A DNA stretch of 64,000 nucleotides. Origin: Escherichia coli. GTDB lineage: Bacteria > Pseudomonadota > Gammaproteobacteria > Enterobacterales > Enterobacteriaceae. Position numbers and translations under genes: made by a program. How positions within the stretch are numbered: position 1 is the first letter of the stretch; each line of letters starts with the position of its first letter. Positions 49,542 through 53,780 of the stretch are shown here, piece by piece. The stretch is from assembly GCF_044324785.1 (NCBI RefSeq), contig NZ_CP172127.1; one strand, 5' to 3'. The notes under the pieces were generated by a model. That model did no database searches and was not told the origin of the DNA. It saw only the letters and a list, made by a program, of their open reading frames with translations.

Positions 49542-50336
49542 TCATAATAATTGCGGCGGCGCAAAGCGACGGTTGTTTAAGACGGGCAGTTGCGCGCGCA
49601 CCTGACGCACACGTTCAGGCGTCACTTCCGCCATAATGAGTGCAGGCATTTCTGACGCTGCCGCAATGGTGACGCCAAAGGGATCTATAATTCGGCTTTG
49701 CCCGATATTTTTGTTCCCGCACTCCCCCGCCGCCACCATATAACAGGTGGTATCCAGCGCACGAGCGGCAAGCAACGTTGACCAGTGATGCTCTTTGAGC
49801 GGCCCACGAACCCAGGCGGCAGGAAGTACCAGGATTTCAGCTCCCTGTAATGCCTGTGCCAGCGCCAGCTCTGGAAAGCGTAAGTCATAACAGGTCATCA
49901 GACCGACCTTCATCCCTTCCACCTCCAGTAACGGAGCTATTTCATTACCAGCATCAACATGGCGTGATTCCTGAATGGCAAATGCATCATAGAGATGCAG
50001 TTTGGCATAACGGGCGACGATGTTTCCTGCCTGTAGCGCCACCAGCATATTCCATGCGCGCCCCGGCGTTGAAGGAACATGAATCGTCAGAATTGTCGTC
50101 ATCATGTTACGTTTACTTTCTCGCCGTAAACGTCCGAGGAATTCGCCTTCCAGCAGCTGTGCTGATTTAACCGATAGATCTGCATCATGATCATCACGCG
50201 CCAACAATGCTTCCGGCAGGACAAACAGCGAAACGTCGTTTTCCGCCGCCTGCGCCATCAACGAGGCACAAATCTCAGCGTTCTTTTCCCACACAGATGT
50301 AACAGCAAACTGTCCTGCGGCAACCAGCATTGCCAC
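49542..50336 (-). CDS. ybeM: YbeM, C-N hydrolase (nitrilase superfamily) protein, apparently intact
   Basis: 264-aa uninterrupted ORF with E...K...C triad context ([10 protein letters not shown]); true start may be the third codon. Confidence 0.8.
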
Positions 50337-50813: not shown

Positions 50814-50844
50814 CAAAAAAACCCGCTGATTAAGCGGGTTTTGA
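50814..50844. terminator. Bidirectional terminator between crcB and cspE
   Basis: AAAAAAACCCGCT-GATTA-AGCGGGTTTTG. Confidence 0.8.
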
Positions 50845-50861
50845 ATTCTTGCTGACGTATC

Positions 50862-51071
50862 TTACAGAGCGATTACGTTTGCAGCAGAAGGGCCTTTGGC
50901 ACCGTTAGTGATTTCGAACTCTACGCGCTGACCTTCAGCAAGAGTTTTAAAACCATTAGTCTGGATTGCAGAGAAGTGTACGAACACGTCTTTGCTGCCG
51001 TCTTCCGGAGTAATGAAACCGAATCCTTTGGACTCATTAAACCACTTAACGTTACCTTTAATCTTAGACAT
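50862..51071 (-). CDS. cspE: Cold-shock-like protein CspE
   Basis: 69 aa [20 protein letters not shown]... (RNP1 motif); track ORF extends upstream to an alternative start. Confidence 0.95.
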
Positions 51072-51245
51072 CAAAATTACCTTTACATGAAAAATAGACA
51101 CAAATGCTGTGTCGGTTACCAGTACACCAATTGTGGTACGCTTTGTCCAGTGCAACTTTACTAAAAAGTGATAAAAGTCGCGTTATTTTTGATGTTACTT
51201 ATTTTAGTTATTGATTTTAAAGAAGTTACTAAAACTTCATTTGTC

Positions 51246-51806
51246 TCAAAACTGAAAGCGCATCCAGGCAAAGTACACATTGCCATTGTTGTAGGTACCC
51301 GGAATGTAGGTCATCTGAAAAGTCACTGGACCATAACCCACAGAGGCCAATGGCAGTAGAACCGGGAGAGGGATGTAATTCCAGTTATCGCGTGCCGTTA
51401 CGCCAGCGGTGAATCCCAGACCTAAATGAAAATTTTCATCCGCCAGCGGTCGCCAGGTACTTTCCCATCCGTATCCGGCAATCGGTTCCCATTTGTTCCA
51501 CGAGTCCTTAAATGCCATGGCATACAGGCCATGCCAGTTTCCTTTTTCATCCCAACGCGACAGGCCAAAACCGCCACCCCACGGTCGCTCGTTATAGCGA
51601 TCGGTTTTTTCTTTGTCGTAAGCGAAACGTGCATGCCAGGTGATGGCAGGAATATATAAATCATAATGTTCAGGCTGTTGCCAGGTTTGTGCAATATTTT
51701 CTCTAAACGTTGTCATCCACTCATCTGCGTTAGCAAAAACTTTACCAACGCTGATTAACTGAATAAAAACAAAGGAAAAGATAGCGACATATTTACTCAC
51801 GTTCAT
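51246..51806 (-). CDS. pagP: Lipid A palmitoyltransferase PagP (CrcA)
   Basis: 186 aa from [25 protein letters not shown] (signal peptide); outer-membrane beta-barrel ending ...RFQF. Confidence 0.93.
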
Positions 51807-52394
51807 TTGTGACCATAAAACATTTATCAAAAATCTACTACCAGCATAGCAAAGCTACAATTAACATAACCTTAATAGCCCCAACATAAAGAATAATCTG
51901 AATAGCTGCTCTATTTATTTCCGCTTGTTTAAGTTAAATATTTCCGCGCATCGATTAAAGATGATGCGTCGTTTTCTGCGATGGGAATAGTCAAAAAAGA
52001 AAAACCAAGTCTTTTTTGATGACAAAATGCAATCAAGGAAAAATTATTTTATTTTTTAACGAGATACAACAATCATCTTAACGAAGTATATAATATATAT
52101 CGTCAACCCATGCTCATGATAGATTATTTTATGAGCACGCAACCGCAGCTAACACCATTGCAATTAACAAATTTGCATCAATCCTCCATCAATTTACACA
52201 CATTATTATGTGATAATTGCCAACCGCTAAATATGCGTTTTGTTATCTATGTATAAAAACAGCAACTTCAATGTCTTAATGGCAGTTTTTCTTGATTTTA
52301 ATCAGCATTCATCGCCAATTTATTGGGCATATTTTTTCCTTAAGCTTTAGGAATTTTTTATTATTTACTTTGGGGCCTGGAGACAGGAAAAATT

Positions 52395-53780
52395 ATGCTG
52401 ACATTCATTGAACTCCTTATTGGGGTTGTGGTTATTGTGGGTGTAGCTCGCTACATCATTAAAGGGTATTCCGCCACTGGCGTGTTATTTGTCGGTGGCC
52501 TGTTATTGCTGATTATCAGTGCCATTATGGGGCACAAAGTGTTACCGTCCAGCCAGGCTTCAACAGGCTACAGCGCCACGGATATCGTTGAATACGTTAA
52601 AATATTGCTAATGAGCCGCGGCGGCGACCTCGGCATGATGATTATGATGCTGTGTGGCTTTGCCGCTTACATGACCCATATCGGCGCGAATGATATGGTG
52701 GTCAAGCTGGCGTCAAAACCATTGCAGTATATTAACTCCCCTTACCTGCTGATGATTGCCGCCTATTTTGTCGCCTGTCTGATGTCTCTGGCCGTCTCTT
52801 CCGCGACCGGTCTGGGTGTTTTGCTGATGGCAACCCTGTTTCCGGTGATGGTAAACGTTGGTATCAGCCGTGGTGCAGCTGCTGCTATTTGTGCCTCCCC
52901 GGCGGCGATTATTCTCGCACCGACTTCAGGGGATGTGGTGCTGGCGGCGCAGGCTTCCGAAATGTCGCTGATTGACTTCGCCTTCAAAACGACGCTGCCT
53001 ATCTCAATTGCTGCAATTATCGGCATGGCGATCGCCCACTTCTTCTGGCAACGTTATCTGGATAAAAAAGAGCACATCTCTCATGAAATGTTAGATGTCA
53101 GTGAAATCACCACCACTGCTCCTGCGTTTTATGCCATTTTGCCGTTCACGCCGATCATCGGAGTGCTGATTTTTGACGGCAAATGGGGTCCGCAATTACA
53201 CATCATCACTATTCTGGTGATTTGTATGCTGATTGCCTCCATTCTGGAGTTCATCCGCAGCTTTAATACCCAGAAAGTTTTCTCTGGTCTGGAAGTGGCT
53301 TATCGCGGGATGGCAGATGCATTTGCAAACGTGGTGATGCTGCTGGTTGCCGCTGGGGTATTCGCTCAGGGGCTTAGCACCATCGGCTTTATTCAAAGTC
53401 TGATTTCTATCGCTACCTCGTTTGGTTCGGCGAGCATCATCCTGATGCTGGTATTGGTGATCCTGACAATGCTGGCGGCAGTCACGACCGGTTCAGGCAA
53501 TGCGCCGTTTTATGCGTTTGTTGAGATGATCCCGAAACTGGCGCACTCTTCCGGCATTAACCCGGCGTATTTGACTATCCCAATGCTGCAGGCGTCAAAC
53601 CTCGGCCGTACCCTGTCACCCGTTTCTGGCGTAGTCGTTGCGGTTGCCGGGATGGCGAAAATCTCACCATTTGAAGTCGTAAAACGCACCTCGGTGCCGG
53701 TGCTTGTTGGGCTGGTGATTGTTATCGTTGCTACAGAGCTGATGGTGCCAGGAACGGCAGCCGCGGTCACAGGCAAGTAA
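52395..53780 (+). CDS. dcuC: Anaerobic C4-dicarboxylate transporter DcuC
   Basis: 461-aa polytopic ORF preceded by a long AT-rich leader. Confidence 0.94.
   Translation: MLTFIELLIGVVVIVGVARYIIKGYSATGVLFVGGLLLLIISAIMGHKVLPSSQASTGYSATDIVEYVKILLMSRGGDLGMMIMMLCGFAAYMTHIGANDMVVKLASKPLQYINSPYLLMIAAYFVACLMSLAVSSATGLGVLLMATLFPVMVNVGISRGAAAAICASPAAIILAPTSGDVVLAAQASEMSLIDFAFKTTLPISIAAIIGMAIAHFFWQRYLDKKEHISHEMLDVSEITTTAPAFYAILPFTPIIGVLIFDGKWGPQLHIITILVICMLIASILEFIRSFNTQKVFSGLEVAYRGMADAFANVVMLLVAAGVFAQGLSTIGFIQSLISIATSFGSASIILMLVLVILTMLAAVTTGSGNAPFYAFVEMIPKLAHSSGINPAYLTIPMLQASNLGRTLSPVSGVVVAVAGMAKISPFEVVKRTSVPVLVGLVIVIVATELMVPGTAAAVTGK

Follow-up and report, generated by a model that had tools for sequence, protein, structure and literature searches.

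The long AT-rich intergenic region between pagP and dcuC of Escherichia coli as a probable divergent regulatory region bounded by two compact promoters

Promoters that are silenced by H-NS and countersilenced by PhoP and SlyA, such as E. coli pagP as well as pagC and ugtL of Salmonella, are alike in their AT-rich H-NS occupancy extending over more than 1 kb, in their derepression in hns mutants, in the placement of a PhoP box beside the −10 element, and in their dependence on SlyA. For pagP of E. coli, loss of hns was reported to derepress a pagP(-lacZ) fusion 18-fold, and SlyA, RcsB-GadE, PhoPQ, and EvgAS have been described as activators (Chalabaev et al. 2014; Szczesny et al. 2018), while the promoter architecture of Salmonella pagP was described by Zwir et al. 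2012. The neighboring dcuC gene, in turn, is classed as directly activated by FNR (Myers et al. 2013, PMC3688515) and is induced approximately 20-fold under anaerobic conditions according to published K-12 data. It can be compared with class II FNR promoters of the dmsA and yfiD type, with which it shares a TTGAT-N4-ATCAG box as well as FNR binding in vivo, and relative to the start implied by the −10 element this box would be centered at −41.5. Two further systems offer themselves for comparison. The 750-bp control region of gadE is likewise a long, AT-rich, and H-NS-bound stretch of DNA that is addressed by several regulators, and pagP, too, responds to RcsB-GadE. Genes for Hfq-type intergenic small RNAs (sRNAs), on the other hand, resemble the pagP–dcuC region only in their location within a long divergent gap and in the presence of one terminator-like hairpin.

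The window analyzed here is a stretch of 64,000 nucleotides of the E. coli chromosome, in which pagP (51246..51806, minus strand), encoding the lipid A palmitoyltransferase, and dcuC (52395..53780, plus strand), coding for an anaerobic C4-dicarboxylate transporter, form a divergent pair. The start codon of pagP ends at 51806 on the minus strand and the ATG of dcuC begins at 52395, so that the entire intergenic region spans 588 bp (51807..52394) with a GC content of 0.315; its K-12 equivalent is NC_000913.3 655969..656556. The GC content remains between 0.31 and 0.33 along the whole length, as compared to about 0.50 in the flanks. Gap lengths were ranked in the annotated strain N3, which is 99.8 % identical to the window, and there the region (GC of 0.315 versus a local value of 0.506) proved to be the longest among 40 intergenic gaps within 50 kb, with a median of 97.5 bp and runners-up of 396 and 379 bp. 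The first-pass annotation, which had singled out an unusually long, AT-rich gap of about 590 bp between the divergent genes, was thus accurate in this respect, and its statement that the gap lacks any open reading frame (ORF) of at least 60 aa holds as well, the longest one comprising 48 aa. Among 5,426 complete genomes of E. coli, an 801-bp query spanning the interval matched 5,419, with pagP and dcuC on either side of the match in every case, and the central 390 bp were found as a single-copy sequence in 5,375 of the 5,426. Neither the K-12 MG1655 RefSeq record nor six other whole E. coli records carry an annotated feature inside the gap, and no feature lies beneath the match to the central 390 bp among the matches listed (25 E. 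coli records).

Most likely, this is a divergent regulatory region in which an AT-rich, H-NS-coated spacer separates two compact promoters, one at either end. Each gene would be served by a promoter lying no more than about 100 bp from its start codon, pagP by a promoter with the extended −10 element TGCTATGCT and a PhoP box one helical turn upstream thereof, and dcuC by a class II FNR-dependent promoter with an FNR box centered approximately 41.5 bp upstream of the presumed start. The remaining spacer of roughly 400 bp is coated by H-NS, as are pagP and the 5′ portion of dcuC, and pagP stays silenced by H-NS until PhoP, SlyA, or RcsB-GadE counteract. Probably, the −10-like hexamers that abound in the spacer are kept in check by H-NS as well, and the half of the spacer adjacent to dcuC (52146–52291) may carry further conserved protein-binding sequence.

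At the pagP end, the extended −10 element TGCTATGCT (51843..51851, minus strand; hexamer TATGCT at 51848..51843) is the sole TGnTAnnnT match on the minus strand of the gap and would place the transcription start site (TSS) at about 51836, approximately 30 nt upstream of the ATG. Published K-12 positions were converted by subtracting the U00096.2 coordinate from 707,586 to obtain the window position, a relation that was validated on the FNR site (see below). On this scale, a sigma70 ChIP-seq peak at v2 655,742 falls onto window position 51844 and goes up under anaerobic conditions, from 37 to 366 (Myers et al. 2013, PMC3688515). The ATAGCA block, which belongs to the extended −10 element when read on the pagP strand, is conserved across genera. 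Located 12 nt upstream of the −10 element is a PhoP-box-like direct repeat, TATTAA-GGTTA-TGTTAA (51861..51877, minus strand). The corresponding sequence TATTAAGGTTATGTTAA at 51861–51877 (minus strand) deviates from the PhoP consensus (T/G)GTTTA-N5-(T/G)GTTTA by three mismatches, a stringency at which the window holds 183 matches, and a match of this quality was dismissed as stand-alone evidence for being too common. The reading as a PhoP box is instead supported by its conservation across genera, where the TGTTAA half (read as CTTAAC/T at the pagP end, with CTTAAC as the reverse-strand form) is kept, and by its published position, rather than by the motif itself. The distance between the PhoP site and the TSS was given as 32 bp for crcA (pagP) of E. 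coli and 44 bp for Salmonella (Harari et al. 2010, PMC2908699); compared with Salmonella pagP, the E. coli box is thus shifted toward the start by one helical turn, and this very shift is visible in the cross-genus alignment. Just upstream of the PhoP box follows the block TAAAGAATAATCTGAATA (51887..51904), the core of which, AATC(A/T)GA, is common to Escherichia, Citrobacter, and Salmonella and which, judging from the sequence, might represent an additional regulatory block.

At the opposite end, the FNR box TTGATTTTAATCAG (52292..52305, plus strand; center at 52298.5) agrees with the consensus TTGAT-N4-ATCAA at 9 of 10 positions, i. e., with a single mismatch, and its core is almost invariant in 48 Enterobacteriaceae sequences. 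The motif by itself is not rare, with 6 matches in 64 kb versus 3 expected. The box is identical to the published site CTGATTAAAATCAA at v2 655,281, which was both predicted and found by ChIP to be bound by FNR in K-12, with an FNR ChIP-seq peak at 655,298 that corresponds to window position 52288 (Myers et al. 2013, PMC3688515). The first-pass annotation had omitted this FNR box from its list of sequence elements. At a fixed spacing downstream of the box follows the conserved stretch TTTATTsGGCAyATT, which contains the −10-like hexamer CATATT (52328..52333, plus strand; CACATT in other genera) 30–35 nt downstream of the center of the FNR box. From this arrangement we infer a dcuC TSS at about 52340, which would place the FNR box at −41.5 and in class II geometry. 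In K-12, a sigma70 ChIP-seq peak at v2 655,235 maps onto window position 52351 (Myers et al. 2013, PMC3688515), and the Shine-Dalgarno region GGAGACAGGAA (52379..52389, plus strand) is conserved across genera.

What sets dcuC apart from the class II FNR promoters mentioned above is an additional conserved element, ATTAACA (52164..52170), approximately 130 bp further upstream of the FNR box, at which the majority base occurs in 60–90 % or more of 48 Enterobacteriaceae sequences (at least 90 % at five of the seven positions). It is part of the upstream segment 52146..52291 on the dcuC side, which is constrained within E. coli, as expected of regulatory DNA, given a diversity of 0.022 versus 0.046 at third codon positions of dcuC. 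This constraint could conceivably reflect a second, upstream dcuC promoter, for example, at TGTGATAAT (52209–52217, plus strand), in which case the transcript would possess a leader of approximately 170 nt and part of the spacer would be 5′ untranslated region. Indeed, TGTGATAAT lies within the constrained segment 52146–52291 and fits the extended −10 pattern, and in several genera TGTGAT is found again on the upstream side of dcuC. Moreover, dcuC was flagged with "TSS not in peak region" for FNR (Myers et al. 2013, PMC3688515), meaning that the catalogued start may lie elsewhere in the gap, outside the FNR peak region. Against this, no separate sigma70 peak was reported at TGTGATAAT, the element is weakened to GATATT in B2 strains, and its distance to the FNR box varies between genera (48, 67, and 82 nt). 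We consider a second promoter of this kind decidedly unlikely and favor the single FNR-dependent one.

Published occupancy data for K-12 support the division of the gap into two promoters and a spacer. Only two sigma70 ChIP-seq peaks are found in the gap, at 51844 and 52351, and these coincide with the two inferred promoters. H-NS regions at v2 654,590–655,558 and 655,584–656,283 (Myers et al. 2013, PMC3688515) translate into window positions 52996–52028 and 52002–51303 and, at the low resolution of ChIP-chip and for the anaerobic entries, cover nearly the whole gap, pagP except for approximately 60 bp, and the first 600 bp or so of dcuC. As a point against the coating by H-NS, the FNR site was marked as being free of overlap with nucleoid proteins (Table S6 of Myers et al. 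2013, PMC3688515), and no IHF regions fall within the gap in the K-12 tables of the same study. Furthermore, an ArcA site was predicted in the pagP–dcuC gap (Park et al. 2013), and an in vitro SELEX peak of RpoN/NtrC was reported at the gap (Shimada et al. 2021). Scanning the gap for the SlyA consensus with up to three mismatches returned no match, and the high-affinity motif of H-NS yielded two-mismatch matches only, which are not above background. The gap contains 18 near-consensus −10 hexamers, and the spacer may well serve in the nucleation or spreading of H-NS. The multiple regulator sites that the first-pass annotation had expected are therefore supported, in the form of a PhoP-type promoter of pagP and an FNR-type promoter of dcuC that are conserved across genera, and this expectation also agrees with the published data for PhoP, FNR, sigma70, and H-NS.

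How much of the region is shared beyond E. coli was assessed by a PagP-based scan with one genome per species, which delivered 80 Enterobacteriaceae loci, in 47 of which dcuC lies divergently beside pagP. Gap lengths amount to 284–300 bp in Klebsiella and Raoultella, 403 bp in Salmonella arizonae, about 410–465 bp in most Citrobacter species, 558–574 bp in other Escherichia species, and up to 1015 bp in genera with unrelated insertions. Alignments of 15 and subsequently 48 syntenic sequences revealed conservation at the two ends only, in addition to ATTAACA. Between genera, the roughly 400 bp in the middle defy alignment, and Klebsiella, with a gap of about 290 bp, lacks them. The conservation analysis across Enterobacteriaceae proposed alongside the initial description thus gave a divided answer, with both ends and ATTAACA being conserved and the middle 400 bp or so being unalignable.

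The stepwise increase in length, from approximately 285 bp in Klebsiella and Raoultella over 403–465 bp in Salmonella and Citrobacter to 558–588 bp in Escherichia, raises the question of whether Escherichia owes its extra length to a former insertion, be it of a gene or of mobile DNA, that has since decayed and persists only as spacer. At the same position, unrelated insertions occur in other genera, with gaps of up to 1015 bp, and the extra DNA is AT-rich and bound by H-NS, as is usual for foreign DNA. Yet the segment shows no similarity to phage records, its matches in the plasmid set are chromosome-sized or chromosome-derived E. coli records, it is single-copy in E. coli, no ORF remnant with a family match was found, and terminal repeats were not noticed. 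Where other genera have longer gaps, these were also checked for gene remnants, and their insertions are unrelated and have no gene in common. An insertion origin hence appears rather unlikely, and it would in any case concern solely where the DNA came from and be compatible with the preferred reading as an H-NS-coated spacer between two promoters.

Within E. coli, the spacer is by no means uniform. Pairwise diversity among seven strains, with third codon positions of flanking genes serving as a neutral proxy (0.038–0.062 for dcuC, pagP, and crcB), was 0.042 on the pagP side (51807–51954), 0.118 in a core of 190 bp (51955–52145), 0.022 on the dcuC side (52146–52291), and 0.018 in the dcuC promoter (52292–52394). 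The core (51955..52145) therefore changes as fast as the local neutral proxy or faster. It is characterized by small indels and two haplotype classes, does not align to sister Escherichia species, and has no counterpart in Klebsiella and Raoultella. At approximately 61 % identity to Escherichia sp. E1V33 and E. whittamii, the central region can practically not be aligned, as opposed to pagP with 84 % and dcuC with 88 %. The core is also mosaic relative to its flanks, as two strains with near-identical pagP and dcuC promoters differ by 11–17 % in their cores, a pattern that fits deep alleles reshuffled through recombination. The best explanation for the 190-bp core is that of unconstrained filler that drifts and recombines freely. 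That the core haplotypes instead tune basal pagP expression between phylogroups, via the strength of H-NS silencing or cryptic promoters, or that the spacer gives rise to a lineage- and condition-specific transcript of the Ssr31 type (see below), strikes us as improbable.

The palindromes highlighted by the first-pass annotation belong to this variable section. Both of them exist, namely TGCTCAT-N13-ATGAGCA at 52111–52137 and the pair of TTGAT (52016–52020) and ATCAA (52032–52036), which are separated by an 11-nt spacer. They do not, however, stand for an excess of such structures: five perfect stems of at least 7 nt were counted in the gap as compared to a mean of 2.6 in dinucleotide shuffles, 16 % of which reach five as well, with the counter entering one hairpin several times in real and shuffled sequences alike. 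The palindrome at 52111..52137 is, moreover, peculiar to the allele of this strain, with substitutions in both arms already in K-12. As a candidate FNR box, the TTGAT/ATCAA pair at 52016–52036 was rejected, since its spacer comprises 11 nt instead of the N4 of the consensus and since it is situated inside the hypervariable core.

According to the first-pass annotation, the length of the gap would leave room for an unannotated sRNA. Such an sRNA might be encoded on the pagP strand, similar to Ssr31, or on the plus strand with its end at a hairpin at 51946–51969. Ssr31 was picked up between pagP and dcuC of Shigella flexneri in a promoter/terminator screen as a 295-nt RNA on the pagP strand and was positive in RT-PCR. 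This method, however, cannot separate an sRNA from a pagP leader, from read-through, or from DNA, and neither Northern blot nor RACE was reported in the Shigella screen. The plus-strand hairpin, GCGCATCGATTAAAGATGATGCGT followed by CGTTTTCT (51946..51969), does exist and resembles a terminator with a short, interrupted T run, but in four of six further E. coli strains its stem is disrupted without compensating changes, and sister species lack it. Sliding-window folding of both strands likewise produced two 100-nt windows in the gap of this strain that beat their shuffles, with z-scores down to −4.5, and values below −3 are confined to the surroundings of two hairpins. In other lineages of E. 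coli, both of these hairpins and structured windows nonetheless lose stability with no compensatory substitutions to offset this, and in sister species the stability is gone.

Transcription signals point in the same direction. While −10-like hexamers abound across the gap, a consensus promoter scan retrieved just one weak promoter-like site (52019–52047, plus strand), which lies inside the hypervariable core and is not conserved. With only two sigma70 peaks in the gap, both of them at the gene promoters, there is no third that could be assigned to an sRNA, and diversity in the candidate sRNA region equals or exceeds the neutral proxy. Searching Rfam at a permissive E-value left the gap empty, with the cspE leader being the only match, and six relatives searched at the gathering threshold have no match there, too. 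Cappable-seq data (Ettwiller et al. 2016) contain no pagP-strand start between v2 653,077 and 656,393, and none of the Term-seq 3′ ends recorded under three conditions (Adams et al. 2021) was assigned to pagP or dcuC. For K-12, the comparison with start-site and RNA data, another check proposed for the interval, yielded sigma70 peaks at the two promoters only and neither a pagP-strand Cappable-seq TSS nor a Term-seq 3′ end assigned to either gene, but it has a limited reach: these genome-scale occupancy and transcript data stem from K-12 under a few conditions, and since both genes are poorly expressed under aerobic conditions, transcripts of the spacer that are weak or condition-specific would escape them. 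Unlike genes for Hfq-type sRNAs, the gap offers no promoter signal of its own for such an RNA, lacks a conserved terminator as well as a seed or structure that would be conserved, and matches no Rfam family. With no Rfam match, no conserved structure, and no third sigma70 peak, an sRNA gene in the gap is not supported and must be regarded as very unlikely.

Even less probable, to the point of being nearly negligible, is a small protein encoded in the spacer, for which the length of the gap had also been thought to leave room. ORFs of 20–48 codons occur on both strands of the gap, and the longest of them, the 48-aa ORF at 52110..52256 (plus strand), is intact in K-12 and two other strains. It is, however, devoid of a Shine-Dalgarno sequence, has no start left in an O157-like strain, and is disrupted by frameshifts in ST131, in A13, and in both sister Escherichia species. 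A survey of 23 ORFs of at least 10 codons that scored Shine-Dalgarno sequences along with intactness left none that combines the two across lineages, barring one 10-codon ORF (52330..52298, minus strand). The latter was rejected as a gene, as it lies within the block of fixed spacing formed by the FNR box and the −10 element and as its middle residues vary between genera. NCBIfam and Pfam searches with eight ORF translations reached 13.6 bits at best, compared to a cut-off of 50, and no annotation exists at the gap in the K-12 RefSeq record or among the matched E. coli records listed. A small-protein gene in the gap is consequently not supported.

The pagP–dcuC gap thus compares most closely to the H-NS-silenced, PhoP-responsive promoters on one side and to the class II FNR promoters on the other. 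It differs from the gadE control region in that it shows no sign of multiple promoters or long leaders, and in that most of its length is unconstrained and dispensable in related genera. The functional elements found here are already contained in the K-12 literature, and the gap is in this sense a known regulatory region: the control of pagP and thereby of lipid A palmitoylation, as well as that of dcuC and thereby of anaerobic succinate and C4-dicarboxylate transport, has already been described, and the present analysis places the respective elements on the sequence. Its useful outcome is a negative one, namely that the gap need not be pursued as a candidate for an sRNA or a small protein. 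For specialists, two points may be of interest beyond that, i. e., the mosaic core that is more diverse than neutral-proxy sites and the conserved ATTAACA element upstream of dcuC.

The core (51955-52145) of the AT-rich, 588 bp gap (51807-52394) between the divergent pagP and dcuC is a mosaic relative to its flanks. Its diversity among E. coli strains (0.118) exceeds that measured at third codon positions in the genes on either side, and strains FDAARGOS_1371 and PNUSAE008406 are near-identical in the flanks while their cores lie 11-17% apart. Across 5,381 E. coli genomes, the central 390 bp of the gap are at least 99% identical to the window in one genome only, that of the annotated and near-identical strain N3. 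The core also carries a perfect A/T inverted repeat of 10 bp, TCAAAAAAGA-N9-TCTTTTTTGA (51991-52019), at which other E. coli strains show substitutions or a 3-bp deletion.

On the dcuC side of the core, the heptamer ATTAACA (52164-52170), which precedes the FNR box of dcuC (52292-52305) by about 130 bp, is largely conserved in a cross-genus alignment of 48 Enterobacteriaceae sequences of the gap, with the majority base found in 60-90% or more of the sequences at each of the seven positions and in at least 90% at five of them. Read on the opposite strand (TGTTAAT), its sequence resembles an ArcA or PhoP half-site. Further downstream, an extended -10-like element, TGTGATAAT (52209-52217, + strand), lies within a segment conserved in E. 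coli. Since the ChIP study of Myers 2013 places the catalogued dcuC transcription start outside the FNR peak region, this element could be a candidate upstream dcuC promoter. Another promoter-like site, TGGACG-16-CATAAT (52524-52551, - strand), is antisense in the 5' part of dcuC and falls inside the H-NS-bound zone.

On the other side of the gap, third-position divergence of pagP (51246-51806, - strand) reaches up to 9.6% within E. coli. When compared with E. whittamii and Escherichia sp. E1V33 (loci L004 and L005 of our PagP-based scan), PagP retains 87-88% amino-acid identity, DcuC about 98%, and cspE differs by a single nucleotide; between Escherichia species, PagP hence changes far quicker than these neighbours. 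Together with its 5' leader, cspE (50814-51256, - strand) matches the Rfam cspA thermoregulator family RF01766 with 123.6 bits (gathering score 78). One edge of this match lies no more than a few bases from the pagP stop codon, and in six other Enterobacteriaceae it likewise adjoins pagP. Beyond cspE, ybeM (deaminated glutathione amidase; 49542-50336, - strand) is an intact ORF of 264 codons, open in the window and in most E. coli strains, whereas the K-12 copy is a frameshifted pseudogene.

Elsewhere in the family, the dcuC-pagP gap extends to 650-1015 bp at scan loci L055 (Kosakonia oryziphila), L010, L023, L030, L052, L053, and L060. In several other genera, the inserts in such long gaps are unrelated to each other and higher in GC, and the one in K. 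oryziphila includes fragmentary ORFs that resemble parts of an RND-type transporter. The dcuC-pagP gap thus seems to be a site that tolerates insertions. Within E. coli, a study on genome rearrangements in de novo antibiotic resistance (PMC6307192) mentions both pagP and dcuC, each 8-9 times, alongside the term "intergenic", and may possibly report an IS insertion or amplification junction in this gap.
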